Assembly (NCBI GenBank): GCA_963772815.1
Contig: CAVYYV010000004.1
Coordinates: 15,418-79,417, forward strand
Direction: 5' to 3'
Origin: an uncultured Acidimicrobiia bacterium
GTDB taxonomy: Bacteria > Actinomycetota > Acidimicrobiia > Spongiisociales > ZC4RG35
DNA length: 64,000 bases
Shown: positions 3,368 to 28,779 of the stretch, in pieces
How positions within the stretch are numbered: position 1 is the stretch's first letter
How the letters are laid out: the number at the start of each line of letters is the position of its first letter
Made by a program: the position numbers and the translations under genes
The notes under the pieces: generated by a model
What the model was told of the DNA's origin: nothing
Databases searched by the model: none
Seen by the model: only the letters and a program-made list of their open reading frames with translations

Positions 3368-3667
3368 GACAGACCTCAAGGATGAGACGCCAAATCATGA
3401 ATGAGAAATCTGCGGCGGATTTGCCGGTTTGACCCCGTTCGACAGCGCCAGTCGGGCCATCCAAATCCGCAACAACGACAGACCTTCACCTGCTCCGCAC
3501 CTATTCCAGACTCGCGTGCCAGAAGGTGCCCGGGCTCTGGTTCGGTCATGTGCCGGTGGCGCGTTTGGCGAGTATTTGATGCGGGGTCGCACCAATCCTC
3601 TTCCTGGGAGATGACGCCTCGGTCTCGCAGCCTTGGGCTGTGCCCTGATGTGTTGGAGCCGGGTTTG

Positions 3668-6021
3668 CTACGGACCCATGGCGCGGTGGAGGAAGGCGGC
3701 CATCTGCGCCCGGGTGACCGGATCGTTGGGACAGAACATGTCGTTGGTGGGTGGGTTGCATCCCCGCGTGACCCCGGCTTCTGCCAGTCGCTCGATGTCG
3801 GCCTCGAAGATGGAACCGTCATCGTCTCTGAACCGATCTGAGCCGGCGCCGGTGGTATAACCAAACGCCCGAACCAGAAACGCCGCCATCTGACCCCTGG
3901 TTACCGGGTCATTCGGGCAGTACTGGTCGTTGGCCGGCGGGTTGCAGCCCTTGGTCACTCCTACCGAGCCGAGCCATTCGATATCGGCCTTGAAGACCGA
4001 GCCGGAGATGTCGGTGAAACTCAACGGGGCGTCGGGGGTCAGCACCCGGCTGAGGCCCCGATGCAGGAACGCAGCCATCTGACCCCGGGTGACCGGATCA
4101 TTCGGGCAGTACTGGTCGTTGGCCGGCGGGTTGCAGCCCTTGGTGATCCCCTGTGCAGCCAGCCACTCGACGTCGCCAAAGAAGGTGTGAGTGGTCGGAA
4201 CATCGCCGAACGTGGGCGACGCGGGCAGTTCGAACACATCGGTCACATCGATGGTTACCGTCGCCACATCACTCTCGGAGCCGTTTGTCACCTCAACGGT
4301 CAGCGAGTACGAGGGCGTGGTCTCGTAATCCAACGCGGCCGCCGTCGTGATCACCCCCGTGTTCGAACCGATCGCGAACACCGCACCCCCGTTGCCGCCG
4401 GTAATCGAGTAGCTCAGTGTGCCGACGCCTGTCGCCGCAACGGTGCCGACCTCGGTGCCGGGCGCGGCGTTCTCAGCTACGGAGAACACGGCGTCGGAGA
4501 TCGCCACCGGAGGGCTGCAGGCGGCCGGTGGGCTGGTCAGCCATGGGTCGTAGTCGATGTCGACGCTGACGCTGTCACCTGACCCGGGCCCGGCGCCGGA
4601 CGGGCCGGTGCTGCTACCCCACCAGTTACTCTCGAGCGTGACTCCGGTACCTGTGCTGTTGGTTGCGCCCGCAGCGTTGTCGACGAAGCAGTTCCCGGTT
4701 GAGCCTGTACCTAGGCCGGCGCTGTCCGTGAGCGTCAAGCCGGCGGTGGCAGCACCGGAGATGCTGTTGTCCTTGACGACCGAAGACCCTGAACCGATCA
4801 GCGCGATCGCGGTTGCGTTGGGTTGCCCATCCCCGACCGGCGTTGTTCCGAACACGTTGTCGCTCACCAGGACGCCGGCGCCCGAGTCGTCGCCGCTGAT
4901 GGAGACACCTGTGGCGGCTGAGGCGAAGTAGTTGCTGCTGATCCGGTTGCCGGTGGCACCGCTCGTCAGACCGACCACCTCGATACCCGTGTCGATTGAC
5001 GCCGGAAGACCGCTCGGGGTGACGCCGAATACGTTCCCCACGATCTCGTTATCGGTGGGGTAGTAGAAGTTGGCGTCGAAGCGGACGCCGGTGCTGCCGC
5101 CGAAGAGGTTGCGCTCGAGGTCATCAGACGTTCCGTCCTCATTGGTCCCCACCAGATTGCCGACGGAGATCTGACGCATGTAGACGTAACCGGCTTCGAC
5201 CTGGCTACTTCCGTCAGCGGTGAAACCGAAGTAGTTGCCCGCCACCCAGTTGTCGTGGTTCCCGGCATCTCCATTGATGTACACGGCCGACGCGCCGGCG
5301 CCGCCGAAGACGTTCCGCTCAGCGACATCGTTGAAACCGTCGCCGTTGGTGCCGATGATCACTCCGGATGCCTCGTTCTCGAGCAGGATCTGGACCGGGA
5401 GATCGCTGGTACCGAGATGCGAATCGCCGGACGCATTGAGGCTGAAGTGGTTGCAGAAGATCTGGTGGCCGGTCCCGTTGGTGACGTAGAGCCCACTGCT
5501 GTACACCGAGACGTTGTCCGAGCCGAAGGCGAAACCGTGGATGGTGGTCGACCCGGTGGCATGGTCGACGGCCAAGGCGGTCGCGTGCTGCCCGACGAAG
5601 GATCGGTGACGATCTCCACCCTCATGTATGAGGGCTCGGTCGTGGTGGTGCACACGTTCGCTTGGGGGGCGCCGTTCTGCGGTTGGGTGGTTCCGTCGAG
5701 ATCTACCGGGTCGGTGATGGTGATCGGACCCCCGGTGAGGGTGATTCGACACACCCCACCCGGACAGGAGGCGGCGGGTATGTCGAATTCGATGATGTCG
5801 GCACCGACGTTGGCGTTGGCGGCAGCGATGGCGCCTCGCAAGCTGCAGTCGTCGGCGGCTACGGTGCAGGACGAGAGCGCCCCGTTGTCGGCGACGGTGT
5901 CGACCACGTATGTGGTCGCCGCGGCTGCAGCCGTCGCGCCAGTGATTCCCGACAGCACCCAGGCGGCAACTCCGATCGCGGCCAGCCAGAGCGCGAAACG
6001 ACGGCGGATCCTTGTTCCCAT
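3668..6021 (-). CDS. Cell-surface protein: signal peptide, right-handed parallel beta-helix repeats, cadherin-like domain, three C-terminal SLH (S-layer homology) domains. Frame break near 5590 between ORF 5359..6021 and ORF 3668..5752.
   Basis: ORF 5359..6021 begins with a signal peptide and the beta-helix N-cap 'CSLRGAIAAANA'. ORF 3668..5752 has repeated 'G.N...NVFG' beta-helix turns, a cadherin repeat ('FSVAENAAPGTEVGTV...LSYSITGGNGGAVFAIGSNTGVITTAAALDYETTPSYSLTVEVTNG') and three repeats 'F.D....F..DIEWL...GVTKGCNPP.ND.YCPNDPVTRGQMAAFL.R' that match SLH domains. Confidence 0.7.
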
Positions 6022-6460: not shown

Positions 6461-6684
6461 TGTTGGTGATGGGCGCGTTGCGGATCTGATGGCCGAACGG
6501 TTGGCGGGGTGTAGGTGTCCGCGACTTGGCTTGTGGAGAGCGGTCGGCTGCTGCTGCTTCCGCTCGACGTTGCCGACTCGGCCGAGATGGTCGTTTTGTT
6601 CTCGCGTCGAGACTGTGCACCTTCCCCGGGGCGGAGGTTCCGAATCCCTCCTTGTCTAGGGAGTGTGCCCCGTATGATCGGGGG

Positions 6685-9600
6685 ATGGTTGGTACCCCTG
6701 GGCGGCAGCTGGCGGCGGTCATGTTCACCGACATGGTCGGCTTCACCGCGCTGATGGAACAGGACGAACTGCTCGGTCTGGAGCGCCGCGACCGGTACAC
6801 GTCGGTTCTGGGGAGAGAGCATGAGGCGTTCGACGGCCGAATCGTGGCGTTTTTCGGTGACGGATCGTTGAGTATGTTCACCAACTCGGTGGATGCCGTT
6901 TTGTGCGCGATCGAGATCCAGCGCCGGCTGGGCGAAGCGCCGCAGGTTCCGGTGCGGGTTGGGATTCATGTGGGAAACGTGTTGGTCGAATCGACCGGTC
7001 TGGTTGGCGACGCGGTCAACATCGCTTCGCGGATCGAGTCGTTGGGGACGCCGGGTGCGGTGACGGTGTCGGACTCGGTGTACGACCAGGTCAAGAACCA
7101 ACCTCAGTTCGGCTTTGTGAGTCTGGGCCGGTTCTCGCTCAAGAACGTCGATCGTCCGTTCCAGATCTACGTGGTGACGGCAAGGGGTCTGCCGGCCCCC
7201 GCGGTCGGCGCCGTCTTTGACGGCAAAGGCACACAGCTTGCCGACTCGGACGGGCGCGGACCCGTTCTCCTTGATCGGGATCGAGAGCTCGACGCCATGA
7301 GCGCACTGCTGGATGGGGTGGGCTCGTCGGGCGGCAAGGTGCTGTTGGTGCGTGGCGAAGCCGGCATAGGCAAGAGCACTCTCGTTGACGCGTTCGTCGA
7401 ACGGCACGCGGACGCGGCACATGTACACATCGGTTTCTGTGACGATCTGCTGACGCCCCAGCCGCTAGGTCCCTTCTGGGACATGGCCCGTGATGAACCG
7501 TCGCTTTTGGAACCCCTGGAGATCGGTGATCGCCGAGGGCTTATGGAGGCGCTCTTGGATCTGCTTGCCCGCAAGCTTCGGCCGACGGTGCTCATCTTGG
7601 AGGACACGCAATGGGCAGACGAAGCAACCCTCGACGTGATCAAGTACGTGGGTAGGCGAACGTCCAAGACCGACGGGATGCTGATCCTCACCTATCGAGA
7701 CGGTGTGGTGGACTATGACCATCCACTCCGAGCGGTGATCGGAAGCCTTCCTCCACAGGATCTTTCGAGGATCCATCTCGATGGTCTCTCACCGGTGGCG
7801 GTAGCGGCGATGGTCGATGAATCAGAGCTCGATGCCGCCGAAGTCCTCACCCTGACCGGGGGGAATCCGCTGTTCGTCACCGAAGTGATTGCCTCGGGTA
7901 TGAGTGACGTCCCTACGTCGATTCAAGATAGTGTCCTGGCCAGAGCGGCGAGCCTCTCCGCAGAGGCACGGAGCGTGCTCGATCTCGTCTCGGTCATCCC
8001 GGGAAAGGCGGAACCGGCCCTGATCGAAGGACTAGTCGGACCGAGGCACGAGCACTTGGCCGAATGTGTCCGACGCGGTCTTCTCCGCGACGAGGACGAC
8101 GGAGTTTCCTTCAGTCACGAAGTCGTCCGACGTTCTGTCGAGGCCGCATTGACCACGGGTGCCCGTCGTGCCCTCAACGAGGCAGTGCTCACCAGACTTG
8201 CCGGGTCGGGCGACCCTTCCCGGCTGGCCCACCACGCCCGCGAGAGTGGGGACGTCGAGGCGATCATCCGATTCGTCCCCGAGGCGGCCAGGGCCGCGAT
8301 CGCCGCCGAGAGTCACCGAGAGTCACTGGCCCACTTCCGAACGCTCGAACCGTACCTGGACCGGATATCCCAAACCGACCGGGCCGCCATCGTCGACGAC
8401 TGGGCCCGCAGCGAGTGGTACCTCGACAATGCCGAATCGCTCGACATTCTCGCCAGAGCCATCGAACTGCACCGCTCCAACAATGACAAGATCGCGTTGG
8501 CAAAGACGCTGACTTTCGCGGTGCGTGTGAACGAGGTGAACGGCCGCCCGGAAGTCGCCGACGCGTGCTCCACTGAATCGGTGGCCATCCTCGAGTCGTC
8601 CCCGCCGAGCGAAGACCTAGCCTTTGCGGTCGCCCAGCAGGCCTGGCTGGCGATCATGCGTGGCGAGAGCGAACGCGCGCTCGAGCATGCCAACCGGGCA
8701 ATCGGCATCGCAGAGCAGACGGGCGCCGAGCTGGCCATGATCTACGCCCTCAACACCAGGGGCTTCCAGCTCTATGTCAACGGCGATGACACAGGTCTCG
8801 ACGTGCTGGAGGAGGCCCGGCGCCGAGCCGAAAACGCCGGCTTCCGGTCGGAGGAAGTCAGGGCGCTTCTGAACATGGCCGCTGCGGCGATCGAACTCCG
8901 TAGATTGACGCTGGCAGAGGACCTGGCGCGCAGGACCATTGCGACCGCCGTTCGATACGACGTGCAGGTCTTCGAGGCGTACGCGCGAGCTCAGCTCGCA
9001 CAGGTGCTGGAGTGGAAGGGCGACTGGGAAGCAGCCGAAGACGCCGCCACCGACGTGCTCGGCTCGCTCCCACATCACGACGTGTTCGCAGGTTGGGTGT
9101 TGGGGACACTGTGGGCACGCCGGGGCCGGCCCGACGCGCGAGCTACGCTCGATCGGGTATGGCAGATGGCCGAGACGTCCGGTGAGATGCAGAACCTGCT
9201 CCCGGCCGCTGCTGCACTCGCAGAGTACCTGTGGCTGACAGGGGAGATCGATGCCGACCTGATCGCTCGCTTCCTGGACGTGCTCGACAGAGGTCTCGAA
9301 TTCGGGTTCTCATGGGCGGGCGGAGATCTCGCCATCTGGCTGTGGAAGTTGGGTGAACTCACCGAGGCGCCGGAGGGGATCGCCGAACCGCACCGACTCC
9401 TGATAGAGGGTCGGTCTGGCGAGGCGGCCGAACGATGGGCAGCGATCGGCTGCCCCTACCAGCAAGCGATTGCCCTTGCTCACGGGGACCGCACAGTCCA
9501 ACTCGAAGCACTCGAGATGCTCGAAACCCTCGGCGCCACCGCGGTGGCGGCCAAACTCAGAAAGGCCTTGCGGGATCAGGGGGTGTCGGTACCGCGTGGC

Positions 9601-9828
9601 AGGAGCAAAGCGGCTCGGTCTCATGCAGCGGGCCTCACCGCCCGGCAAGCGGAAGTGCTCTCGCTGCTCGCCGAGGGTCTCTCGAACGTCGAGATCGCCG
9701 ACCGGCTGTTCCTGTCGCCGCGAACCGTTGAGCACCACGTCGCCGCCGTGATCAGCAAGCTCGACGTGTCGACGCGTGACGACGCCGTCGAGGTAGCCGC
9801 CGAGCAGGGTCTCTTGACCGCCCCGTAG
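6685..9828 (+). CDS. Large ATP-binding LuxR-family regulator with N-terminal class III adenylyl/guanylyl cyclase domain, AAA/NB-ARC ATPase, TPR-like helical region and C-terminal LuxR HTH
   Basis: Cyclase motifs 'AVMFTDMVGFTALME', 'VAFFGDGSLSMF', 'GIHVGNVLVE...GDAVNIASRIE'. P-loop 'VRGEAGIGKSTLV'. LuxR HTH 'LTARQAEVLSLLAEGLSNVEIADRLFLSPRTVEHHVAAVISKLDV'. Start chosen at the ATG at 6685 ('MVGTPGRQLAAVMF'). Confidence 0.85.
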   Translation: MVGTPGRQLAAVMFTDMVGFTALMEQDELLGLERRDRYTSVLGREHEAFDGRIVAFFGDGSLSMFTNSVDAVLCAIEIQRRLGEAPQVPVRVGIHVGNVLVESTGLVGDAVNIASRIESLGTPGAVTVSDSVYDQVKNQPQFGFVSLGRFSLKNVDRPFQIYVVTARGLPAPAVGAVFDGKGTQLADSDGRGPVLLDRDRELDAMSALLDGVGSSGGKVLLVRGEAGIGKSTLVDAFVERHADAAHVHIGFCDDLLTPQPLGPFWDMARDEPSLLEPLEIGDRRGLMEALLDLLARKLRPTVLILEDTQWADEATLDVIKYVGRRTSKTDGMLILTYRDGVVDYDHPLRAVIGSLPPQDLSRIHLDGLSPVAVAAMVDESELDAAEVLTLTGGNPLFVTEVIASGMSDVPTSIQDSVLARAASLSAEARSVLDLVSVIPGKAEPALIEGLVGPRHEHLAECVRRGLLRDEDDGVSFSHEVVRRSVEAALTTGARRALNEAVLTRLAGSGDPSRLAHHARESGDVEAIIRFVPEAARAAIAAESHRESLAHFRTLEPYLDRISQTDRAAIVDDWARSEWYLDNAESLDILARAIELHRSNNDKIALAKTLTFAVRVNEVNGRPEVADACSTESVAILESSPPSEDLAFAVAQQAWLAIMRGESERALEHANRAIGIAEQTGAELAMIYALNTRGFQLYVNGDDTGLDVLEEARRRAENAGFRSEEVRALLNMAAAAIELRRLTLAEDLARRTIATAVRYDVQVFEAYARAQLAQVLEWKGDWEAAEDAATDVLGSLPHHDVFAGWVLGTLWARRGRPDARATLDRVWQMAETSGEMQNLLPAAAALAEYLWLTGEIDADLIARFLDVLDRGLEFGFSWAGGDLAIWLWKLGELTEAPEGIAEPHRLLIEGRSGEAAERWAAIGCPYQQAIALAHGDRTVQLEALEMLETLGATAVAAKLRKALRDQGVSVPRGRSKAARSHAAGLTARQAEVLSLLAEGLSNVEIADRLFLSPRTVEHHVAAVISKLDVSTRDDAVEVAAEQGLLTAP

Positions 9829-9940
9829 GTGCTCCGCACAAAAAAGGGTGGGTGCAACCCCATAGTTGGGTAGGGGCCACCGACGACCTCGCGGTCACCG
9901 AACCATACGTTGGCGTCGGAACAGACGAGGAGAGGCCCAC

Positions 9941-10135
9941 ATGTTTCCGTCACAGCCACAGATCGGGCAAGACATAGCCAGAGAGCGGCAGGAACTCGCA
10001 GCACGAATGCGGCAAGCATCCACGGTGCGTCCAGTCCAGAATCGCAGACGGGCGCTGTTCGGAAAGATTCGCAGACTCGGACTGCCTTCACTGCTCAAGC
10101 GGCCCCCACGCAGCCTCGAACGGAGCGCGGGATGA
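9941..10135 (+). CDS. Hypothetical small basic protein (65 aa) with good RBS; followed by a stem-loop (GGCTCCCC...GGGGAGCC) at ~10152-10200
   Basis: ATG at 9941 preceded by 'aggagagg' 8 nt upstream. ORF 'MFPSQPQIGQDIARERQELAARMRQ...'. No recognisable family. Confidence 0.2.
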   Translation: MFPSQPQIGQDIARERQELAARMRQASTVRPVQNRRRALFGKIRRLGLPSLLKRPPRSLERSAG

Positions 10136-10339
10136 ACCACGCTCAATGAGTGCGGCTCCCCCCGCCGCCGTGACCCTGCTCCCTCCACCAGAGGGGAGCC
10201 GACAGCGGTAGCACACTGAAAATGTGCAACTGCCACCTGACGGGCCGCTGTCCAGGCTCGTGCCCGAGCTGCATTCTTGGAGCTACGACACGACTTTGTA
10301 GATTCAGTCCGACGACTCCCTACTACTTCACTGCCGCAT

Positions 10340-10362
10340 CAGTTCACGCTGCGTGCGAACTG
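10340..10362. promoter_or_regulatory. Inverted repeat CAGTTCA-N9-CGAACTG in the AT-richer region ~80 bp upstream of abiEi; candidate AbiEi autoregulatory operator
   Basis: Sequence 'cagttcacgctgcgtgcgaactg'. AbiEi antitoxins are known to bind inverted repeats in their own promoter. Confidence 0.25.
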
Positions 10363-10439
10363 CCGGCTTCTTCATGTTATGTTCAGCAGTAATCCATTAA
10401 TTCCACTCACATGGGAACTACTGGACTAGCATTGTAGCC

Positions 10440-11246
10440 GTGAAAGCAGGGATATCCAGGTCCGGTCGTGAAGAGCTGGCCGCGGTGACCAGCCGCGGTA
10501 GGCGCCTTGTCACGGTGGACGTCGTCGTCGACGGGTTGGGGCTGGGTCGTACCGAAGCGGCGAAGAAGCTGGCGCGGTGGGCTGAGCAGGGGTGGCTCCG
10601 GCGCGTTCGGCGCGGACTCTATATCCCTGTGCCCGTAGACGTGGAGCAGCCTGATCTATGGTCCGAGGATCCGCTTGTTCTGGCTAATGCAGTCTGGTCG
10701 CCGTGCTATTTCACGGGCTGGACAGCTGCCAACCACTGGGGACTGACCGAGCAGATCTTCCGAACAACTGTTGTGAAGACTTCTCGTCGCGTGAGAGCGG
10801 CGAGTCAGCGGCTCCTGGATCACGATTACCTGATCGGACATACACCCGATTCGACTATGGCTTGGGGGATGCGGACCGTGTGGCGACAGGAGCACCGGAT
10901 CAACGTGGCAGATGAATCACGGACGGTTGTCGACATCCTTGACGATCCCAGGATTGGTGGCGGCATTCGTCACGTTGCGGAGATCCTGTCCGCGTACGTG
11001 GCTGACTTCGAAGGGGACCAGGTCGTCGACTACGCGGAGCGCCTGGGCAACAGGACGGTATTCAAGAGGCTGGGTTATCTGATCGAGGCCATGGGGATTC
11101 CTGATGATGACCTTGTGGCTGCGTGCCGGAGTCGGATCTCGGGAGGTGTCTCCCTCCTTGACCCGGGAGCGTCTGACACAGGACCCCGCATAAGCGAGTG
11201 GGGTCTGCGCGCCAACGTCCGCCTTGAAGGGAACGCTTCGTTGTGA
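10440..11246 (+). CDS. abiEi: AbiEi-family antitoxin / transcriptional regulator (type IV TA, abortive infection)
   Basis: N-terminal AbiEi_4-like wHTH ('LVTVDVVVDGLGLGRTEAAKKLARWAEQGWLRRVRRGLYIP'). GTG start. 4-nt ATGA overlap with the downstream AbiEii gene. Confidence 0.8.
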   Translation: MKAGISRSGREELAAVTSRGRRLVTVDVVVDGLGLGRTEAAKKLARWAEQGWLRRVRRGLYIPVPVDVEQPDLWSEDPLVLANAVWSPCYFTGWTAANHWGLTEQIFRTTVVKTSRRVRAASQRLLDHDYLIGHTPDSTMAWGMRTVWRQEHRINVADESRTVVDILDDPRIGGGIRHVAEILSAYVADFEGDQVVDYAERLGNRTVFKRLGYLIEAMGIPDDDLVAACRSRISGGVSLLDPGASDTGPRISEWGLRANVRLEGNASL

Positions 11247-12418
11247 TTCCGCACGGTGAGATCCTCGCCCTCCGTGGCGAGTGGAATCTACGAGGCGACG
11301 TCATCGAGAAGGACTACGTGCTCGGATGGATGCTCGCCGCCATCGCCCAACAGCCCGAGCTCACGGACACATGGGTGTTCAAGGGAGGGACGTGCCTACG
11401 GAAGTGCTATTACGAGACTTATCGCTTCTCTGAGGATCTGGATTTCACAGTGATCGAGGGAGGACCGGAGACTCCCGAAGACCTGCTCCCAATATTCGCT
11501 GGAGTAGCCGAACGCCTTCTTGATCAGTGCGGGCTCGAGATCTTCGTCGATCAGAAGACCTTTGTACGACAAAGGAACCGCCGAGGAAACCCAACCACGC
11601 AAGGTCGGGTCGCCTTCAGAGGCCCGAGCAATCCACCGAGCCTGCCCAAACTCAAGATCGACCTCACGAGCGACGAGGCGTTCACCGGCCCGCGTCACAG
11701 CCGGCAGGTGCTCCACCCATACAGCGACGCCGAACAGTTGACCTGGGAGGTGACCGCCTACTCCCTACCTGAGTTGCTGGCCGAGAAGATCAGGGCGCTC
11801 GCCGAACGGTGCAGACCACGCGATCTCTACGACGTCGTGAACGTTCATCGACACCCCGATCTCTTGGGAGACCCAGACCCTGTCCGAGCAGGCCTCAAGG
11901 AGAAGTGCGTGTACGTCGGGATTGACGTCCCGACCGCGGACTCAATTGCCGACTCTTCTTTCAAGGATGAACTCGAACAGGAATGGGAGAACATGCTGGG
12001 ACATCAGTTGCCTCATCTTCCTCCCGTAGCCGAGTTCTGGAACTCGCTGAATAGTGCCTTCGGCTGGCTGGAAGGAGAACCCATGGCGGTTCTCGACCGA
12101 GCACCCTTTGATGCCTCGATAGACGCCGCGTGGGTGCCGCCCCGAGCAATGACCACTTGGCGCCGCGCGGCTCCGCTCGAACTGATCCGATTCGCCGGGG
12201 CAAACAGACTGAGAGTTGAGATCGACTACCGACCGGCCGAGGGGCGCTGGGAGCCGCGTGTTGTCGAGCCGTTGTCGTTTCGGATGACTCGCGTGGGACA
12301 CCTGCTCCTCTACGTCATCAACGATCGTGGCCTACTCCGCAGCTATCGGGTGGACAGAATTGCCGGAATCCGTGTGCTCGATGAGAGCTTTACTCCGCGT
12401 TACTTTGTCGAATTCTGA
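11243..12418 (+). CDS. abiEii: AbiEii/AbiGii-family nucleotidyltransferase toxin (DUF1814) with a ~110-aa C-terminal WYL-like domain extension
   Basis: NTase motif 'VFKGGTCLRKCYYETYRFSEDLDFTV'. C-terminus 'LRVEIDYRPAEGRWEPRVVEPLSFRMTRVGHLLLYVINDRGLLRSYRVDRIAGIRVLDESFTPRY' follows the WYL-domain pattern (V.I.Y...R.V.P..L...WYL.A....R.FRLDRI), with WYL replaced by LLY. Confidence 0.8.
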   Translation: MIPHGEILALRGEWNLRGDVIEKDYVLGWMLAAIAQQPELTDTWVFKGGTCLRKCYYETYRFSEDLDFTVIEGGPETPEDLLPIFAGVAERLLDQCGLEIFVDQKTFVRQRNRRGNPTTQGRVAFRGPSNPPSLPKLKIDLTSDEAFTGPRHSRQVLHPYSDAEQLTWEVTAYSLPELLAEKIRALAERCRPRDLYDVVNVHRHPDLLGDPDPVRAGLKEKCVYVGIDVPTADSIADSSFKDELEQEWENMLGHQLPHLPPVAEFWNSLNSAFGWLEGEPMAVLDRAPFDASIDAAWVPPRAMTTWRRAAPLELIRFAGANRLRVEIDYRPAEGRWEPRVVEPLSFRMTRVGHLLLYVINDRGLLRSYRVDRIAGIRVLDESFTPRYFVEF

Positions 12419-12504
12419 TGTCTGACGTATGGCGCCGTCAGGATCGAGCCCCGTGCAACCGTTAACTTGTAGTAAGGAGGACGATGGAAGTCAGCACCAG
12501 GACC

Positions 12505-12625
12505 GACCACGTCTTAACTCCCTCGCGGGAGCCTGGGCAGGTTTGACTCCCGTTTGACCGCGAATTCGGAATCACCCGGTTGGGCCCGTTGTAGCTGGCC
12601 TTTCTGTCCCAACACGTTCCACTTC
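12505..12625 (+). repeat. Copy of the dispersed ~125-bp repeat family, immediately downstream of mazF-like gene
   Basis: 'accacgtcttaactccctcgcgggagcctgggcaggtttgactcccgtttgacc...cccaacacgttccactt' aligns with the copy at 13309-13432. Confidence 0.6.
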
Positions 12626-12634
12626 GCTCGGATT

Positions 12635-12973
12635 TCAGTAGTTCAGGAGCGTCTTGATGACGCTGGCGACTTGTTGGCTGGTGTGGGCGTCGACGCTGCC
12701 GAGTCGATGTACGAGCCGGGCCCGGTTGACCGATCGAATCAGTTCACACTGGACGTAGCTGATCTCGTCGAGCCCGGTGTCTGGGGTCGGTTCGACTTTG
12801 ATGTGGAGGGACAGCCCACGTGGGGTGGTTGTCAGTGGGGTGACGATCACAAACGGGAAGTCCGGTCCGAAGGTTTCGGGCGGACCTACTACCAGGGCGG
12901 GCCGATGAGCTGCCGGCTCTCCAGGGTATGGCTCGCCGAAGTCGACGAGCCATAGGTCATCGATCGATGCCAT
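12635..12973 (-). CDS. mazF: PemK/MazF-family type II toxin (mRNA interferase)
   Basis: 'WLVDFGEPYPGEPAAHRPALVVGPPETFGPDFPFVIVTPLTTTPRG' matches the MazF/Kid fold signature. Overlaps the upstream antitoxin ORF by 17 nt. Confidence 0.8.
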   Translation of the reverse strand: MASIDDLWLVDFGEPYPGEPAAHRPALVVGPPETFGPDFPFVIVTPLTTTPRGLSLHIKVEPTPDTGLDEISYVQCELIRSVNRARLVHRLGSVDAHTSQQVASVIKTLLNY

Positions 12974-13202
12974 CCGCTACCGAGGTTGCGTCCGCTTCGG
13001 CCAGGTATGCCTTCCAGGCGTCTTGGTCGGTCCTGAGTTCTGCCAGTTCGGCAGCCACCTGGTGAGCGAATCGCTGCCTACCGAGTGCCTCGGTGGCGTC
13101 GCGGATGGTTTCGATGAGCGTCCGTCCTGACTCTCTGCTGAGCGCCTGTAGCCGAGCGTGGGTTTGGGTGTCGACCCGGATGGTGGTGGTAGCCATGAAC
13201 AC
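12957..13202 (-). CDS. Ribbon-helix-helix (CopG/ParD-like) antitoxin partnered with the MazF-like toxin
   Basis: 81 aa; N-terminal 'TTIRVDTQTHARLQALSRESGRTLIETIRDA' is RHH-like. Sits immediately upstream of, and overlaps, the toxin gene. Confidence 0.65.
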   Translation of the reverse strand: MFMATTTIRVDTQTHARLQALSRESGRTLIETIRDATEALGRQRFAHQVAAELAELRTDQDAWKAYLAEADATSVADGIDR

Positions 13203-13203
13203 C

Positions 13204-13238
13204 AGTCTACAGATTGTATATATGTGAGTCTACAGACT
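13204..13238 (-). promoter_or_regulatory. Candidate antitoxin operator/promoter: direct repeats AGTCTACAGA flanking a TATATAT element right at the mazE-like start
   Basis: 'cagtctacagattgtatatatgtgagtctacagactc', directly 5' of the start at 13202 on the minus strand. Confidence 0.3.
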
Positions 13239-13308
13239 CGGGGTGACGGATCAGGCAGCGTCGTTCGATCACAGTTGAACAGTTTCCGCTTCCTAGGGCC
13301 CGAAGCGC

Positions 13309-13432
13309 GACAACACGTTCTACGTCCCTACGGGAGCCAGGGCGGTTTGACACCGGTTTGAGGGTGCGCCCCAGATCACGCGGACTTCGCCCGTGGCAGC
13401 TGGCTTCTATGCCCCTACACGTTCTATTGGGC
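13309..13432 (+). repeat. Most complete copy of the dispersed ~125-bp repeat family (terminal direct ACACGTTCTA motifs, internal GGGAGCCAGGGCGGTTTGACACCGGTTTGAGGG box)
   Basis: 'caacacgttctacgtccctacgggagccagggcggtttgacaccggtttgagggtgcgcc...cccctacacgttctattgggcg'. Confidence 0.6.
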
Positions 13433-13519
13433 GTGTCGTCGAGGGCTCCCGCCAGCGGTCCCTCGTCCGGGCCATTCGGCCCTTACCGTCGGGAAGGGCT
13501 CCAGTGATGATCACAACAC

Positions 13520-14032
13520 ATGAGTGACCATGGAGAACCCCCCGCCGGCGGAAGGATCCACAAGCCCTCCCGACTCCTCAAGTTCGTCTTCGACATGCCC
13601 TCCGTCATGTACCGCTGGGGTCTGGGTTGGATGATGGGCAAGCGGATCCTGGCGGTGACCCACACCGGTCGGAGAAGCGGCAAGACATACCAGACGGTCC
13701 TCGAGGTGGCGCTCTTCGATCCCAAGACCGAGGAGAGCATCGTCGCATCCGCCTACGGGACCGAGGCCGACTGGTACCGGAACATCCGGGCCGAGCCCGC
13801 CTCCAGAGTGCAGACGGGACGACTCGACTACACCCCCGAGCAGAGGTTCCTCAGCCCCGAGGAAGCCATGGAGGCTGCGGCGATGTTTTGCCATCGGCAC
13901 CCCTGGGAGGCCAAGCTGGTCCCTCGGGTCCTGCCATCCATCGGGGCGGTCATTCCAAGGGACACCAACGCTGCCCCCGAAGAGTTGTTGGGATCGTTGC
14001 CGATGGTGGGCTTCCGCCCCAAGCGGGACTGA
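13520..14032 (+). CDS. Deazaflavin (F420H2)-dependent nitroreductase family protein (Ddn/PPOX-like, DUF385)
   Basis: 'MPSVMYRWGLGWMMGKRILAVTHTGRRSGKTYQTVLEV...ADWYRNIRAEPASRVQ' matches the Ddn-like family. Paralog at 27883..28377. Confidence 0.8.
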   Translation: MSDHGEPPAGGRIHKPSRLLKFVFDMPSVMYRWGLGWMMGKRILAVTHTGRRSGKTYQTVLEVALFDPKTEESIVASAYGTEADWYRNIRAEPASRVQTGRLDYTPEQRFLSPEEAMEAAAMFCHRHPWEAKLVPRVLPSIGAVIPRDTNAAPEELLGSLPMVGFRPKRD

Positions 14033-15217: not shown

Positions 15218-16717
15218 TCAGGGCTGTCGGTTCGAGATGCGGAATACCGGGATTTGCTCGGACACCCCCTTCATGGCGCCTGAGACCGGCTCGACGTCAT
15301 AGCCGGCGAGCAGTTGGCCCACACCCTCGGCGTCCAGGATGTCCTGGGTGATGAGGATCTCGCTTGCCCCGGCCAGTTGCTGGGTGCGGGCCGCGATGTT
15401 GACGTTCTGTCCGAAGTAGTCGAGTCGCTCGTTGAGGGTGACGGCTACCGAGTGACCTCTGTGCACTCCCACTTTCAGCTCCATCGGCCGCTCGCGGGCG
15501 GCGGTCTCGTTTCGGATACTGTCCACCATGTCGACGGCTGCCGACACGGCGTGGGTGGGTCTCAGGAAGGTGGCCATCACCGCGTCACCGATGGTCTTCA
15601 CCAAGACGCCGTGGTGTCTCGACACTGCTTTGTCGAGAATGTCGAAGTGGACTCTCACCAGGTTGTAGGCGGTGACGTCGCCTATCTCGTCGTACATTGC
15701 GGTCGAGTCCTTGAGGTCGGTGAACAGGTAGGTCAGGTCTGTGACCGAAAGGCCTTCACCCTCGGGCGGCGCCTCCATTCGAAACAGCCGACGAAACAGG
15801 GGCGTATTGAGGAGTCGTTTCGCCGACAGCGGACCCGAGTTCTCAACGTTGGCGACCACCTCCGCTATGAAGGTCGACGGATACTTGACTATCCAGACGG
15901 GCCATCTCCAGGACGATTCGTTCCTGCAGGTGAGATGAATGCCGCCGGGTCCGACGGCATGGACTGCGGGGAGTAGCAGGGTGCCGATCGGTGTCTCGAT
16001 CGGCACCTTCGAGGTAGGGATTCCCGGGTGGCCCAGCCCGTCGTCATCGAAGGTCAACACGAAGTGCCTGGTGATCTTCTCCTCGTCGCGCAGGACGGCG
16101 AAAGCGATCGACGTCGTCCAGTCACGCACGAGGAGCGTTCCCTCCTCGAGATCGACGTCGAATTCGGCGCGTTCGGCGGGCTCGACATATTGGAGAGCCG
16201 CCGTGACGTCGCGCAGGAGATCCACGGTGGCCATGTCACCGACATTGGTCCGTGCCGCCCGGCTGTAGTGAAAGTCGAACAGCAGCTGTTCGAGGGTCAA
16301 CTCATCGGGGTGATGAAAGACGATCTCCCGGACAACGGGATCGATCGTGAAGACGACCTGGATGACGTCGTCGAGCCTGGATTGGTTTTCCATGTCACAT
16401 AGGGTGCAGTGGAAGTGTGGGTCGACCTCCTCGAGGGCGCGGAAACTCTTGAAGACGTTGCCGCACGACACACAGACGATGTTCCATTCCATCCGGAACA
16501 GGCCGGCGGTGGTCGCCTGGAGGAACAGATCGATCACCGCGGACTGGTCGAGTCCCCTCTCGTCGGCGTATCGAATCGGGTTGACCCTGAACACTTCGAC
16601 ATCCGACGACGTGCCGACGAAGTCACCCAGGCCTTCGACAAGAGCAGCATCGGCACCCGAGGCGATGATTCTCTCAAGACACGAGAGGAGTGATGACTCG
16701 TCGAGTGAAACGCCCAA
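15218..16717 (-). CDS. Class III adenylate/guanylate cyclase with N-terminal Cys-rich (zinc-ribbon-like) regulatory domain
   Basis: C-terminal cyclase domain ('LTYLFTDLKDSTAMYDEIGDV...VKTIGDAVMATF...GVHRGHSVAV...GQNVNIAARTQQLA'). N-terminal domain with 'CVSCGNVF...HCTLCDMEN'. Confidence 0.8.
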   Translation of the reverse strand: MGVSLDESSLLSCLERIIASGADAALVEGLGDFVGTSSDVEVFRVNPIRYADERGLDQSAVIDLFLQATTAGLFRMEWNIVCVSCGNVFKSFRALEEVDPHFHCTLCDMENQSRLDDVIQVVFTIDPVVREIVFHHPDELTLEQLLFDFHYSRAARTNVGDMATVDLLRDVTAALQYVEPAERAEFDVDLEEGTLLVRDWTTSIAFAVLRDEEKITRHFVLTFDDDGLGHPGIPTSKVPIETPIGTLLLPAVHAVGPGGIHLTCRNESSWRWPVWIVKYPSTFIAEVVANVENSGPLSAKRLLNTPLFRRLFRMEAPPEGEGLSVTDLTYLFTDLKDSTAMYDEIGDVTAYNLVRVHFDILDKAVSRHHGVLVKTIGDAVMATFLRPTHAVSAAVDMVDSIRNETAARERPMELKVGVHRGHSVAVTLNERLDYFGQNVNIAARTQQLAGASEILITQDILDAEGVGQLLAGYDVEPVSGAMKGVSEQIPVFRISNRQP

Positions 16718-18358: not shown

Positions 18359-18805
18359 TTGGGCCACGGGACCCGGCGCCTCCTCCCACCCCACCTGGCC
18401 CAAGCCCTGGCCGATGCCCGCCAGCGCCGTGGGCTGTCCTTGCGCCAGGCCGCCCGGCTGATCGGGATCGACTACGGCTACCTGGGCCCGTTGTGCCGGG
18501 GGGAGCGGTGCCCAAGCAAGGAGGTGGCGGAGCGGTTGATCTGGGGCCTGGATCTGGACTCAGAGGTGGCCGAGGAGTTGCGGGCGGTGGCGGTGGAGCA
18601 CCTATCGACGCAGTGCTTTGCTTCGCTCATGGTTGGCCCTCGGCTGGGGAGGGTTCTCGTAGCCAGACGGCGGCGGTTGCTGGTGCCATGGTCCGCTGGA
18701 TGGTGTCTGAGAGATCATCGACAACCCCCCCAAGTGATACCCCTTCTGCTAGGCGGTCGCTTAAGAGGTCGACTTCTCGTTGAGTGTTGTACTTGCTGCG
18801 GTTGA
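18359..18805 (+). CDS. XRE-family helix-turn-helix protein (copy 1); C-terminal extent uncertain (overlaps the convergent membrane-protein gene)
   Basis: HTH 'LSLRQAARLIGIDYGYLGPLCRGERCPSKEVAERLIWGLDLD'. TTG start. Paralogous copy at 19830-21047. Confidence 0.55.
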   Translation: MGHGTRRLLPPHLAQALADARQRRGLSLRQAARLIGIDYGYLGPLCRGERCPSKEVAERLIWGLDLDSEVAEELRAVAVEHLSTQCFASLMVGPRLGRVLVARRRRLLVPWSAGWCLRDHRQPPQVIPLLLGGRLRGRLLVECCTCCG

Positions 18806-19829
18806 AGCGGTGGTCGACGGCCCGCTGGATGCGTCGGTGAGCGGGATTGAAGATGGCGGCGGCGGCGAGGGTAGAACCGGCGACAACCAGATCGTTGGAT
18901 TCGCCGAGGAGGCGGGCAAGCAGCAAGACGGGGATGGCGTAGACCGCGGCGACCACGGCGGCGACGAGGGCGTAGGTGACGGTCCGGGAGACGATCCGAT
19001 CAATGTCGTACAGGCGGTACCGGGTAATGGCCACTCCGAACGAAACGGGGATCAACATGTAGATCACGAGGACGGTTCCCCAAATGACGTTTCCATTGTC
19101 TCCGGCGGTGAACTTCGGGTCGGCGATGAGCCACCCTAGGAGAACGAGGATGCACACGCCCAGTAGCGCCATGGTGGCGAGCACGGGCTTGTATCGCATG
19201 CGCAGTTCTGGAGTGGCCCGGCGCCCCCTCAGGACCACTCCGACGGCGGCAGCGATGAGGAACGCCGTCACGGCGGCGTTGGTAACGGCGCCGGTTGATT
19301 CGGGGAGCCATGGGAGTCCGGTGGGGTTGGCGCCGATGAGGATGCTGGCGTCGTTGACATCGGTGACTGTGGGGGTGAGGAACCCGCCGAGGACCATTGC
19401 GGTAGCGATCCAACCGGCGATCCTCCACCACCGCGAGGGGCGACCGTCTGGGAAGAGGATGAGCAACCAGGTGAACAGGGCGAACATCAGTGTGAAACCC
19501 CATCCGTCAAGCCAGTCGACCCAGAGAATCGAGAGCCATGGCAAGTCGCTGGCGGTCATTTGGAGGACGACACCTAATCCGCACAGCACCCAGCCGATCG
19601 GATGCGACCCAACCTTGCGCAGGATTATGTAACCGGCGGCATAGAACGGAAGGGCAACAAAGGGACTCAAGTACAGCCCGCCCATCCGAACGCCGACGGC
19701 GACCGCCAGGGCGAGCATAAGTCCGAGGAGCACGAGGGCGGCAGAGCCTGGCGAGACGCTAAGAGGTCGCGTCCTCGTCACTCGGTTGGAAGAGATCTCG
19801 TTCATCGCTGGGCCACTATCGCAGGGCAA
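18627..19829 (-). CDS. Polytopic membrane protein (≥8 TM) with conserved cytoplasmic C-terminal domain; paralog of 21072..22244
   Basis: Hydrophobic helices throughout. C-terminal block 'ITRYRLYDIDRIVSRTVTYALV...AGSTLAAAAIFNPAHRRIQRAVDHRFNRSKY' is shared with the paralog ('ISRYRLFEIDRIISRTVGYGLV...[31 protein letters not shown]'). Confidence 0.75.
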   Translation of the reverse strand: MPCDSGPAMNEISSNRVTRTRPLSVSPGSAALVLLGLMLALAVAVGVRMGGLYLSPFVALPFYAAGYIILRKVGSHPIGWVLCGLGVVLQMTASDLPWLSILWVDWLDGWGFTLMFALFTWLLILFPDGRPSRWWRIAGWIATAMVLGGFLTPTVTDVNDASILIGANPTGLPWLPESTGAVTNAAVTAFLIAAAVGVVLRGRRATPELRMRYKPVLATMALLGVCILVLLGWLIADPKFTAGDNGNVIWGTVLVIYMLIPVSFGVAITRYRLYDIDRIVSRTVTYALVAAVVAAVYAIPVLLLARLLGESNDLVVAGSTLAAAAIFNPAHRRIQRAVDHRFNRSKYNTQREVDLLSDRLAEGVSLGGVVDDLSDTIQRTMAPATAAVWLREPSPAEGQP

Positions 19830-20042
19830 CGTTCCGTCATCGTTACGGAACAGCGCCGTGGGCTGGCCTTGCGTCAGGCCGCCCGGATCATCGGGATTGA
19901 CTACGGCTACCTGGGCCGGTTGTGTCGAGGTGAGCGGTGCCCGAGCAGGGAGGTGGCGGAGCGTTGATCGCGGTGCTGGACCTGGACTCGTGAGGTGTGT
20001 CTGATTTAATGTCGCACGTTCCGGATGTTTCAGACCGCATGG

Positions 20043-20492
20043 TCATGGTTCTGGAGTGTGGTTGTGGCGATGGTAATCGATGCGTCGTTTCCGGGCTTGT
20101 GCGAGTCCTTTCTTGCGGGCGGCGCGGACGGCGGGTCCTTGGCCGCGGTGTTCTTGGTCGGGGGTGACGTAGCCGATGCCGGCGTGGAGTCGCACCCCGT
20201 TGTAGTGGCGACGGCGGATCTCGAGTTCTTTACGGAGCACGTCGATGTCTTCGATCAGGTCGAGGTGGGGGAACTCGCCTTTGAGGTGCCCGAAGAACGA
20301 TTCGATCCACGCCTGGTCGGTGGGGGTTCCGGGCCGCCCGTAGTGGGTGGCCAGCCAGCACAGGGCCATGAACTCTCGGCTCGATCCTGACGTCATTTGG
20401 GGTCCGTTGTCTGACATGACCAACAGCACCGGCAGCCGCTCGTCTGCGGGGTCGTAAGGCTGGGATCCGTCGGGGCTGCGTTCCTCGATCAC
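20043..20492 (-). pseudogene. Truncated IS transposase OrfB (rve/DDE integrase core lacking first catalytic Asp region)
   Basis: 'VLLVMSDNGPQMTS...YGRPGTPTDQAWIESFFGHLKGE...YNGVRLHAGIGYVTPDQ' is an rve-domain C-terminal two-thirds. Only ~35 aa precede the DNG motif, so the N-terminal catalytic region is deleted. In frame with orfA after a TAA stop. Confidence 0.65.
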
Positions 20493-20519
20493 GTCGAGGA
20501 GTTCTTCGTCTCTGAGGCC

Positions 20520-20864
20520 TTAGGTGAAAGCGGTCTGCACCTGGATCGAGGTTTCCTCGGTGGAGGTGACATCGGAGATCCATTTGCGGGACACCACGTC
20601 GGTGATCACCACCGAAGCCTCCGCCTCCGCCCGGGCCTCGGCCAGCTCGAAATCTCTCTCCCGCTTGCCGGGACGGGAACGAGCCAGGGCGTCCAATGCC
20701 CCCTGACGGGCCACGTCACGCAGCTTCGAAATGGTGGAACGATCCACCCCGGAGCGGTCAGCCGCCTCGCCTATCGTGGTCTCACCCTTGACCAGCTGCA
20801 TCCAGATCTCGTACTTCTCCTGCGGCGCCAAGAACCGCTTCTTCTTCCTCGGTGGGGTACTCAA
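20520..20864 (-). CDS. IS transposase OrfA (HTH + coiled-coil)
   Basis: 'KKKRFLAPQEKYEIWMQLVKGETTIGEAADRSGVDRSTISKLRD' matches an IS3-type OrfA HTH. Confidence 0.65.
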   Translation of the reverse strand: MSTPPRKKKRFLAPQEKYEIWMQLVKGETTIGEAADRSGVDRSTISKLRDVARQGALDALARSRPGKRERDFELAEARAEAEASVVITDVVSRKWISDVTSTEETSIQVQTAFT

Positions 20865-25053: not shown

Positions 25054-26046
25054 GTGGTGCGTGCGGCGTGGTACGAACGTCAAGGTCCTGCCCATGAGGT
25101 CGTCGAGGTGGGGGAGATGCCCGAGCCTCATGCCGGTCCCGGCGAAGTCCGGGTCCATCTGGCGACCTCGGGGGTCAACCCGTCAGACGTGAAACGCCGC
25201 GGCGGATGGCGCGGTCAGCAGATGCCCTTCGACCGGATCGTGCCTCACAGCGACGGAGCCGGAGTGATCGACGAGGTCGGCGACGGTGTCGGCTCGGCGA
25301 GGATGGGTGAACGGGTCTGGGTCTACAACGCACAGTGGAAGAGGCCCTTCGGCACGGGCGCCGAGTACGTGGCGCTTCCCGCGGCCCAGGCGGTCCACCT
25401 GCCCGATGGGTCCGGGTTCCCTGCCGGAGCGTGTCTCGGGATTCCCGGGATGACCGCTCACCGGTGCGTCTTCGCAGATGGCGCCGTCGAGGACAAGACC
25501 GTCCTCGTCACTGGAGGAGCCGGGAGCGTCGGCTTCTACGCCGTTCAATTGGCCAAGTGGGGCGGGGCGACCGTGATCACCACGGTGAGCAGCGGGGCCA
25601 AGGCCGAGGTTGCCGCATCCGCGGGAGCCGACCACGTTCTCAATTACCGGGAGGACGACGTGGCCGGCCGCATCATGGAGATCAGCGACGGCGCGGGCGT
25701 AGACCACATCGTCGAGGTGGACTTCGGCGCCAACCTGCCGGTGGGCGACGCGGTCCTCAAGCGGCACGGAGTCATTGTCACGTACGCCTCCATGAGCAAG
25801 CCGCAGCCCGTTCTTCCCTTCTACTCCCTCATGGTGCGGAACGTGCTGATCCGCTTCGTGTTCGTCTACGAGGAGCCGCCGGCCGAGCTGGCGCGGGCGA
25901 CCCGGGATATCGACACCTGTCTCGAAGAAGGGTTCCTCCGGCACCTCATCGCCGAACGCTTTCCCCTCGGAGAGACTGCAGCGGCTCACGTCGCCGTCGA
26001 GAGCGGTCGCCTCATCGGCAACGCGGTGATCGACGTCGGTTCGTGA
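25054..26046 (+). CDS. NADPH:quinone oxidoreductase / zinc-independent MDR family (Qor-like)
   Basis: 'VLVTGGAGSVGFYAVQLAKWGGATVITT' Rossmann motif. Qor-like N-terminus 'GEVRVHLATSGVNPSDV'. Start assumed at GTG ~25054. Confidence 0.8.
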   Translation: MVRAAWYERQGPAHEVVEVGEMPEPHAGPGEVRVHLATSGVNPSDVKRRGGWRGQQMPFDRIVPHSDGAGVIDEVGDGVGSARMGERVWVYNAQWKRPFGTGAEYVALPAAQAVHLPDGSGFPAGACLGIPGMTAHRCVFADGAVEDKTVLVTGGAGSVGFYAVQLAKWGGATVITTVSSGAKAEVAASAGADHVLNYREDDVAGRIMEISDGAGVDHIVEVDFGANLPVGDAVLKRHGVIVTYASMSKPQPVLPFYSLMVRNVLIRFVFVYEEPPAELARATRDIDTCLEEGFLRHLIAERFPLGETAAAHVAVESGRLIGNAVIDVGS

Positions 26047-26060
26047 CCCCGGCCGCTTCC

Positions 26061-26545
26061 TCAGGTTCGGCCTGTGGCCCCGAACCGCTTGAGGGTGAGC
26101 GTCTCTCCGACCTCGACCCCGAGGTTCCGTGCGTCGGCGATCTCGAGGACAGCCGACGCCAGTGCCAGGTCCTGGAGGCCGGTTCCGGTGGACTTGAACA
26201 GGGTGAGTTGCTCGGGCGCGGTCCGGCCGGGGTGCAGCCCGGCCACCAGCGAGCCGAGAGACCGGGATCGATCCGGGTCCAACCCCCGCTCGACCGCGGC
26301 CACGGCGTCACCGGCCTGTTCGTAGCCGAGCTCGACGGAGTCGCAGACGATGGGATCGAAGCAGTCGACGAAGCGGGCATCGACCACGTCGCGCATCTCG
26401 TCGATGAACTCGGACCGGTTGGCCGCGTTGCGTGAGAAGACGCGGATCTCCTCGACTGGCCGAACGGCCTGCAGGGCAGGCAGTTGGGACCGAGCCACGG
26501 ATCCGGTGCCGATGACGGCGACTCGCTCGAGGGCCGACAAAGGTG
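26061..26545 (-). pseudogene. Truncated inverted duplicate of the 3' half of the ornithine cyclodeaminase/mu-crystallin gene at 35683..36675 (~99% identical, with a 168-bp in-frame internal deletion)
   Basis: Protein of ORF 26061..26540 equals residues ~115-331 of the 35683..36675 product, minus 'STVDEAV...GRFDL' (56 aa). Nucleotide identity is visible, e.g. 'ctcaccctcaagcggttcggggccacaggccgaacctga' at both loci. Confidence 0.7.
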
Positions 26546-26574
26546 CACGACAAGTCTGATCAGCCCACGTGCGG

Positions 26575-27361: not shown

Positions 27362-27882
27362 CGCGGTGCCCAGAGTGATGCGACTGGTGACGAATCGAGC
27401 AGCGGTGATGAGCTGAAACGGGTCGAGGACCGAGATCTGACCATCTGCGACGAACAGCCCCGAGTAGTCCTACTCCTCCGTCAGTCGAACCCTGGAGAGG
27501 AACGGCTCGAAATCCGTCGACGACGCGTGTAGATAGAACTTGGTCATCGACTCCTCGCCACCGAGATGGATCGAGAGAAAATCCTAACGCCGGAGTAGGA
27601 CATGTGGCGATGGAAACGCCATCTACCACAGGCGAGATCGCGCGACTGGAGGAGCACCGTCAAACGGGGTCAAATCGGAAACCTCCTGAGCCCGTCGACC
27701 CGGGGAGGCCCGCCGTTGTCATCCCACACGCGACATCTGGATCCACCGGGGGGGTACGGTCGGGTCCGATTCGTGCCGGCCTATATGAGGCAGGCGACGG
27801 ACCGTGCGTCGGTCAGTGCCTGATGGATAGGGGCTTGTCTGCTCGGATTTGACCGGTTGAGCCCGCGGAGCATTATGGCAGA

Positions 27883-28377: not shown

Positions 28378-28484
28378 CCCCGGTTCTACAGCTCATCGGT
28401 GGTGCACTGAAATTCGGGTTGAGCCTAGGCGACCTACGCAGCTGGATGGACCAGTTCTAGGTGGGCGACCGCTCCCTTTCCAAC

Positions 28485-28610: not shown

Positions 28611-28779
28611 TTGGGGGGGATTGGGCAATGGCCTGAGGCGAATCGATGAATGACCGAAGGCGCTTTCAGACACCTGTCGAGCGTTGTCGATAGAGTGCGC
28701 CAGGCACCGCGACCTCGAAGCTTGAGCGGTTGCAGAGCTTGAAGACAAAAGCTGAGGTCGTCGAGGGCCACAGAGATAT

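Follow-up and report, generated by a model that had tools for sequence, protein, structure and literature searches.

Positions ~10136-13440 of the 64-kb window analysed here (the whole stretch of DNA taken from contig CAVYYV010000004.1) are best read as two independent toxin-antitoxin (TA) operons, abiE and mazEF, each regulating itself, that form a mosaic at a site of low conservation in an Acidimicrobiia-like chromosome, a reading to which a probability of about 0.8 is given. The window has a GC content of 64%, and its nearest named relatives are metagenome-assembled genomes of Acidimicrobiia. At least one of the two modules is a mobile cassette acquired from elsewhere. Both belong to known families, the first being an AbiE system of the subclass in which the toxin is fused to a WYL domain and the second a type II pair resembling MazEF7, and there is no new kind of system at the locus. 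The four genes lie where a first-pass annotation, made from the sequence alone, had placed two TA modules, and Pfam matches for AbiEi, AbiEii and MazF, with PADLOC matches for the two AbiE proteins, bear this out. The locus neatly illustrates TA cassettes that have settled at a variable chromosomal site of an uncultured Acidimicrobiia-like lineage, both modules coming from well-populated families covered by standard annotation tools. Coordinates of the features are collected in Table 1.

The antitoxin and regulator AbiEi matched Pfam AbiEi_4 at 31.7 bits (cut-off 25) and fell narrowly below the cut-off of AbiEi_1 (20.3 bits against 22.2), and the PADLOC AbiEi model matched it over its full length (E=2.6e-79); its score against the NCBIfam AbiEi equivalog, 15 bits, is below the 150 required. 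The start codon giving a protein of 268 aa is supported by homologues of 89% identity, which are also 268 aa long. The overlap of abiEi and abiEii is GTGA, comprising the GTG start of abiEii at 11243 and the TGA stop of abiEi at 11244-11246, and not the ATGA first reported. AbiEii matched PF08843 at 122.6 bits (cut-off 22.5) over profile positions 3-231 of 238 and PADLOC PDLC02317 (396 positions) over its full length (E=3e-127). The assignment of the pair to AbiE stands; the C-terminal WYL domain of the toxin had been overlooked. An exact-sequence look-up with the representative of the 100% AbiEii cluster returned no record.

The nearest known family is AbiE/MenAT, which includes AbiEi-AbiEii of S. 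agalactiae and L. lactis, and MenA3-MenT3 (Rv1044-Rv1045) and MenA4-MenT4 (Rv2827c-Rv2826c) of M. tuberculosis. The operon described here shares with this family a bicistronic arrangement with the antitoxin gene first and a 4-nt overlap, a COG5340-type winged helix-turn-helix (HTH) antitoxin, a DUF1814 toxin with GG[TS]...RFS.D.D and K...RxRDxYD motifs, and paired inverted repeats at the abiE promoter that resemble those of the S. agalactiae operator. Unlike the characterised AbiEii, MenT3 and MenT4 (~290 aa, no WYL), the toxin is ~100 residues longer because of its C-terminal WYL domain. The label 'type IV' for AbiE is historical, as these systems have recently been reclassified to type VII (bioRxiv 10.64898/2026.01.19.700257), and AbiE has been reported to carry out pyrimidine-specific tRNA modification (bioRxiv 10.64898/2026.01.19.700257).

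The DUF1814 nucleotidyltransferase of AbiEii spans residues ~1-290 and the WYL domain residues ~312-382 (nt 12176-12388; PF13280 at 28.2 bits, cut-off 21.8). Among 35 homologues of 60-87% identity, the invariant positions include K47 G48 G49 T50, R61, S63 and E64 D65 L66 D67, as well as K182, R189 C190 R191 P192 R193 D194 L195 Y196 D197 and, in the WYL domain, R366 and Y368. The motifs of Pol-beta-type nucleotidyltransferases (GG[ST], [DE]x[DE] and K...RxRDxYD) are thus intact, and the motif aligns to MenT4 (6Y56). An AlphaFold2 (AF2) model of AbiEii (predicted local distance difference test score 84.7, predicted TM-score 0.83) was compared with solved structures by Foldseek, in which the N-terminal part matched MenT3/TglT and MenT4 (E=2e-6 to 2e-5, target TM-score 0.52-0.62, ~300 columns) at a sequence identity of just 14-19%, and the last ~75-95 residues matched the WYL domains of DriD, PafBC, BrxR and CapW, the best being DriD (root-mean-square deviation 1.8 Å, 75 columns, 26-28% identity). 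Ser63 lies two residues ahead of D65, at the position of MenT3 S78 (S78 and D82 of MenT3/TglT being taken from the titles of entries 6J7N and 6J7R), which is auto-phosphorylated under antitoxin control (PMC11375011); the corresponding phospho-site of S. agalactiae AbiEii is T65 (bioRxiv 10.64898/2026.01.19.700257).

Like the WYL sensors DriD, PafBC, CapW and BrxR, AbiEii keeps the R-x-Y-R-V-D-R-I signature, to which the invariant R366 and Y368 belong, but unlike these transcription factors, which are built as HTH-WYL-WCX, it has no HTH, the WYL domain being attached to a toxin that is an enzyme. The fusion of WYL and DUF1814 was listed by Makarova et al. 2014 (PMC4012209). A search for AbiEii homologues gave 7272 matches at E<=1e-5, the best 120 of which are all 376-406 aa long, and the layout of PF08843 followed by PF13280 is shared by thousands of homologues of ~391 aa. 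Homologues of 44% identity and 100% coverage adjoin AbiEi genes on Rhizobium plasmids, where PGAP names this long form 'nucleotidyl transferase AbiEii/AbiGii toxin family protein'; compared with the long form as modelled in PDLC02317, the present protein has no structural difference and is another member. Viral contigs held just two distant AbiEii-WYL loci (44-45% identity), and matches in the phage collection were partial only, at ~30% identity. No experimental study of the fused form was found in the literature searched.

The fused domain belongs to a class that binds nucleic acid in single-stranded form, and it most likely either senses such a ligand or helps to hold the acceptor end of tRNA. 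A tentative proposal is that the domain is an integral sensor for single-stranded nucleic acid, such as single-stranded DNA from phages or conjugation, and gates the tRNA-modifying toxin directly. If true, the widespread AbiEii-WYL subclass would sense its trigger via the toxin and not via the antitoxin. For the question of what releases AbiE/MenT toxins (bioRxiv 10.64898/2026.01.19.700257), the joining of a domain class that binds single-stranded DNA (DriD, CapW, PafBC) to the toxin in thousands of homologues is the point of wider interest at this locus, as it offers a testable handle on that trigger.

The second module is encoded on the opposite strand. MazF matched PemK_toxin PF02452 at 68.5 bits (cut-off 23.1), and among solved structures M. 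tuberculosis MazF7 is nearest to it (E=7.6e-14, 104 residues aligned). The overlap of 17 nt between mazE and mazF (12957-12973) is as first described. The antitoxin had been called a ribbon-helix-helix (RHH) protein, for which only sub-threshold matches were obtained, all within residues 3-56 (RHH_1, E=0.055; MatP_C, E=0.037; TraY, E=0.043), those to the RHH families falling on residues 5-36. The match to MazE7 (6A6X_C) was likewise marginal (E=0.034), aligning the N-terminus TTIRVdTQThaRLqAlsREsG to the RHH region of MazE7, and a single-sequence AF2 model gave one long helix that is uninformative for RHH. Because these marginal matches point to RHH families and MazE7 itself has an RHH domain (PMC9477884), the N-terminus of MazE is probably an RHH. 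As in M. tuberculosis MazEF7 (Rv2063/Rv2063A; PDB 6A6X, 5WYG), the antitoxin gene lies upstream of the toxin gene and overlaps it; relatedness to that pair is distant and the antitoxin match marginal.

Both operons have operator-like repeats ahead of the antitoxin gene. The pattern ARTTC-N11-GAACT occurs in the 64 kb at the abiE promoter only, with 3 matches against 0.08 expected, and equivalents of the form RTTC-N11-GAAYT are kept upstream of homologous operons in L002, L003, L085 and L004; one operon with equivalent sites encodes proteins only 64-72% identical. By analogy with the S. agalactiae system, AbiEi would bind the two inverted repeats (IR1 and IR2), which form the predicted operator. 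A CTA.CATTGT block near the abiEi start is conserved in homologues, and the position of the TAGCAT hexamer suggests a leaderless or near-leaderless abiEi transcript; in a simple sigma-70 and terminator scan, sites were no commoner than in shuffled sequence and TAGCAT was not called. In mazEF, the hexamer TACAAT (minus strand, 13218-13213) lies between the two AGTCTACAGA copies, 10 nt ahead of the mazE GTG. Both upstream layouts would fit autoregulation of short-leader transcripts by the antitoxin.

From work on related systems we infer the biochemical activities of both modules and any role in phage defence. For AbiE, studies of AbiE and MenT (PMC7450476, PMC10435456, PMC11375011, PMC3985639, bioRxiv 10.64898/2026.01.19.700257) suggest that AbiEi would repress the operon by binding the two ARTTC-N11-GAACT inverted repeats, which abut the promoter, and would hold AbiEii inactive by inducing its auto-phosphorylation on Ser63, two residues before the catalytic Asp65-x-Asp67. 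If this control fails, AbiEii would be expected, from the MenT and AbiEii work, to add nucleotides to tRNA 3' ends, so that translation stops. MazE would neutralise the MazF endoribonuclease and, with its probable RHH N-terminus, may bind the AGTCTACAGA copies on either side of the -10 box of its own gene.

The position of the left edge comes from five metagenome contigs (L086 to L090), in which a copy of the flanking regulator of 81-82% identity is followed at an equal offset by an ORF of 68 aa. The proteins of these open reading frames (ORFs) and of the 64-aa ORF in the window align end to end at 56-64% identity, and DNA homology to the window fades at 10012. Past the small ORF the contigs carry different genes and neither abiE nor mazEF. 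As the small ORF is the last element in common, the variable DNA begins at ~10136, in agreement with the start near 10150 first proposed. The spacer that follows had no match within the window or in any fetched locus. Among GTDB representatives, the best matches to the flanking regulator are 44-49% identical and have no shared synteny. On the right, orthologues of the DDN-like protein are 67-77% identical and lie in unrelated contexts. The comparison with syntenic relatives envisaged in the first-pass annotation yields relatives that share the left flank and lack the modules, and no relative that keeps the right flank. The 910-aa cyclase found upstream of a DDN-like orthologue on L093 was rejected as an orthologue of the regulator in the window, to which it is not orthologous.

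The abiE cassette recurs elsewhere. Over exactly 10337-12420, its DNA is 83-84% identical to cassettes on contigs carrying relaxase and integrase genes, and the homology ends at the abiEii stop codon. These cassettes lie downstream of a TrwC relaxase gene and an HTH gene, with a tyrosine integrase also present on one contig. Another close relative adjoins an integrase gene and a TIR-domain (CAP12-PCTIR_TIR) gene, and a relative of 72% identity adjoins phage remnants; mazEF is found in none of these contexts. The cassette has a GC content of ~60% in every context, compared with 65-66% for chromosomal relatives. The abiE cassette clearly comes from the pool of mobile elements.

The two modules also differ in their divergence from a near-identical strain, represented by an ENA metagenome contig (L001) that is 99.7% identical to the window across 20.3 kb. 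Half of the difference events (23 of 46) fall in 10337-12569, a ten-fold enrichment (p=5e-11), and none in mazEF or repeat copy B. The differences are especially dense in 12419-12569 and include a 6-nt indel; taken together, they cover the abiE cassette plus the initial half of repeat copy A. Recombination could have produced this tract, or strains may have been mixed. In L001, abiEii is split by a 1-nt deletion within a CCC run at 11623.

The segment has a genuine but small drop in GC content, in line with the AT-richness first described. Positions 10012-13500 have a GC content of 60.6%, against 64.05 +/- 1.5% in equally sized windows, making them the lowest 3.5-kb segment of the window (lowest 1% of positions), and their tetranucleotide distance is in the top 5%. 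GC at third codon positions (GC3) is 0.68-0.72 in the four TA genes; neighbouring genes have 0.76-0.84, and 46 crude gene calls average 0.77 +/- 0.06. A GC content of 0.60-0.63 persists to ~17.5 kb through genes with normal GC3, so that the right edge cannot be placed from GC alone. Elsewhere in the window, the strongest compositional anomaly lies at 28500-34000, with a GC skew of +0.3 at 28.5-30.5 kb and of -0.32 at 32-34 kb, and the largest tetranucleotide distance, exceeding that of the TA segment, at 29.2-31.5 kb.

The dispersed repeats that had been described as a 125-bp family delimiting the segment do form a family, of which the window contains four copies (nhmmer E 1e-32 to 7e-11), but their length is ~105-116 nt and their placement is different. 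Copies A and B bracket mazEF only, and the 612 nt upstream of abiEi (9829-10440) had no match elsewhere in the window, hence no left repeat copy. Copies C and D flank a DDN-like paralogue (27883-28377). Identity within pairs is ~76%, no higher than between pairs (77% over 109 nt for C and B by blastn), and the most conserved feature of A and B is a tandem GTTTGAC-N4-GTTTGA. The copies form two direct pairs, 805 and ~900 bp apart, each enclosing a small gene unit (mazEF or the DDN-like F420 oxidoreductase gene) on the opposite strand, and after each pair comes a co-oriented gene for an F420-type enzyme (the DDN-like gene at 13520 and a luciferase-like (LLM) gene running from 27548 on the minus strand). 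The LLM oxidoreductase gene (26012-27548, minus strand; ATG at 27548) has an in-frame TAG near 27473 and is probably a pseudogene; its 3' part enters a longer repeat at 26061-26530.

A permissive Rfam scan of 12400-13550 found nothing relevant, the repeat having no Rfam match, and a reading of the repeat as a structured RNA was dropped, as folds of both strands and consensus folds of three and four copies gave z-scores of +0.7 to -2.9 and no covariation; the consensus fold had an energy of -7.5 kcal/mol with an unfavourable covariation term. Terminal inverted repeats or target duplications were not evident in an alignment of the four copies with their flanks, and inspection of the copies, in which no pattern scan was run, revealed no RYYYAAC/GTTRRRY signature of attC sites. 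Two pattern scans of Joint Genome Institute (JGI) metagenome contigs for the repeat gave zero matches, and nhmmer with the repeat profile against all fetched loci found matches solely in L001. Readings of the repeat as an integron cassette boundary or as a miniature inverted-repeat transposable element (MITE) were judged unlikely, there being no conserved hairpin, terminal inverted repeat or target site duplication.

The first-pass annotation regarded the segment as a horizontally acquired island, of which the accessory, acquired nature of the DNA is upheld and the single repeat-delimited unit is not. One defence island acquired in a single event, with its ends marked by dispersed repeat copies, would account for the adjacency of the two modules, for the whole segment being the lowest-GC 3.5 kb of the window and for the repeat copy at the right end. 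This explanation is very improbable, since the left end has no repeat copy and A and B flank mazEF alone, abiE cassettes occur elsewhere without mazEF, the DNA homology shared with those cassettes extends no further than the abiEii stop codon, the modules differ ten-fold in divergence between near-identical strains, and two more copies surround an unrelated gene, for an oxidoreductase, at 27.6-28.6 kb. A role for the same repeats as recombination boundaries, attC- or MITE-like, that mobilise mazEF (12.5-13.4 kb) and the DDN-like gene (27.6-28.6 kb) agrees with the two tight direct pairs, each around an opposite-strand gene unit, and with the ending of the inter-strain divergence tract inside copy A. 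It is nevertheless unlikely, as there are two instances only, paired copies resemble each other no more closely than copies of different pairs do, neither an attC signature by inspection, nor consistent terminal inverted repeats, nor target duplications, nor conserved secondary structure were seen, the regions examined hold no integron integrase, and the JGI pattern scans found no relatives. That the repeats bounding mazEF and the small gene at 27.6-28.6 kb constitute a lineage-specific cassette-shuffling system is a weaker possibility than the WYL sensor proposed above.

Acquisition itself may be questioned, because both modules could be long-resident, vertically inherited chromosomal TA genes whose lower GC reflects their gene families and not recent transfer. 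The compositional shift is small, other genes of the window have GC3 of 0.67-0.68, no mobility genes are adjacent, and low GC extends as far as ~17.5 kb across genes that look native. Vertical inheritance of both modules is nonetheless unlikely, given that they are absent in relatives sharing the left-flank genes, that abiE cassettes of 83-84% DNA identity adjoin relaxase, integrase or phage genes in unrelated contexts, and that the GC content of the cassette fits these mobile contexts and not chromosomal relatives.

Several observations weigh against the mosaic of two acquired operons as favoured here. The shift in composition is modest, at ~2.3 standard deviations for GC and ~1.5 for GC3. 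No mobility gene, tRNA gene or att-like direct repeat flanks the segment: there is no integrase at its borders, the window has no tRNA gene, an Rfam gathering scan of the whole window found nothing relevant, and the nearest transposase gene, of the rve_3 type, is ~7 kb off. A clean empty site is not available, because right-flank synteny is absent in all available relatives, and acquisition is consequently less well supported for mazEF than for abiE. Part of the excess divergence from L001 could stem from strains having been mixed in metagenome assemblies, and the frameshift of abiEii in that strain could be either a genuine loss of the gene or an error of assembly. Finally, S. agalactiae AbiE showed no anti-phage activity in E. 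coli (bioRxiv 10.64898/2026.01.19.700257), indicating that such activity is not universal among AbiE homologues.

Table 1. Positions of the TA genes, putative regulatory sites, repeat copies and flanking genes in the window.
Feature	Position	Strand	Remarks
Cyclase-STAND-TPR-LuxR regulator gene	6652-9828		Left flank; class III adenylate/guanylate cyclase domain
Small conserved ORF, 64 aa	9941-10135	+	Downstream of LuxR-type cyclase/STAND regulator
Unique spacer, ~200 nt	10136-10336		No recognisable feature
Putative abiE operator, two inverted repeats ARTTC-N11-GAACT	IR1 10341-10361; IR2 10399-10419	+	Pattern and conservation
-10-like hexamer TAGCAT	10427-10432	+	7 nt ahead of abiEi GTG; read from sequence
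abiEi, antitoxin/regulator, 268 aa	10440-11246	+	GTG start; N-terminal winged HTH and C-terminal AbiEi domain
abiEii, toxin, 391 aa	11243-12418	+	DUF1814 nucleotidyltransferase and C-terminal WYL
Repeat copy A	12516-12631	+	nhmmer E=1.8e-32; convergent gap, abiEii stop to mazF stop
mazF, toxin, 112 aa	12635-12973	-	PemK/MazF endoribonuclease family, PF02452
mazE-like antitoxin gene, 79-81 aa	12957-13202	-	Upstream of mazF; GTG start
Putative mazEF promoter/operator, two AGTCTACAGA copies	13204-13213; 13227-13236	-	Around AT-rich stretch; read from sequence
Repeat copy B	13321-13436	+	nhmmer E=9.3e-32; divergent gap, mazE to DDN-like gene
F420-dependent (DDN-like) oxidoreductase gene	13520-14032		Right of repeat copy B
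DUF5939-cyclase signalling protein gene	15218-16717		Class III cyclase domain; other side of segment from regulator
Repeat copy D	27594-27676	-	nhmmer E=7.2e-11; more diverged
Repeat copy C	28483-28591	-	nhmmer E=1.5e-30

A search for further defence genes had been proposed in the first-pass annotation, and a PADLOC scan of 10 neighbouring proteins gave no specific match, leaving AbiE as the sole PADLOC call. The two cyclase genes on either side of the segment had weak generic matches to PycC, and the regulator also to CARF3, reflecting the shared cyclase domain only.

Other features of the window were recorded in passing. The rve_3 transposase gene (20043-20864, minus strand) is split by a stop codon in the window and is called intact (273 aa) in L001. 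It adjoins a 400-aa ORF (18627-19829, minus strand) with no Pfam or PADLOC match, around which lie 113-nt direct repeats (18422-18534 and 19851-19963) of 90% identity. The repeat entered by the LLM gene is one of a set of inverted repeats (26061-26530 and 36041-36675) of ~330 and ~170 nt and 95-98% identity, which bracket a segment of the window from ~10 kb apart. A surface protein gene with cadherin and SLH domains contains three tandem copies of a unit of ~186 nt, 62-71% identical (3661-4187). Direct repeats of 60 nt (46292-46351 and 49420-49479) and 42 nt (43429-43470 and 46116-46157), each 90% identical and ~3 kb apart, suggest duplicated gene starts or paralogous genes.

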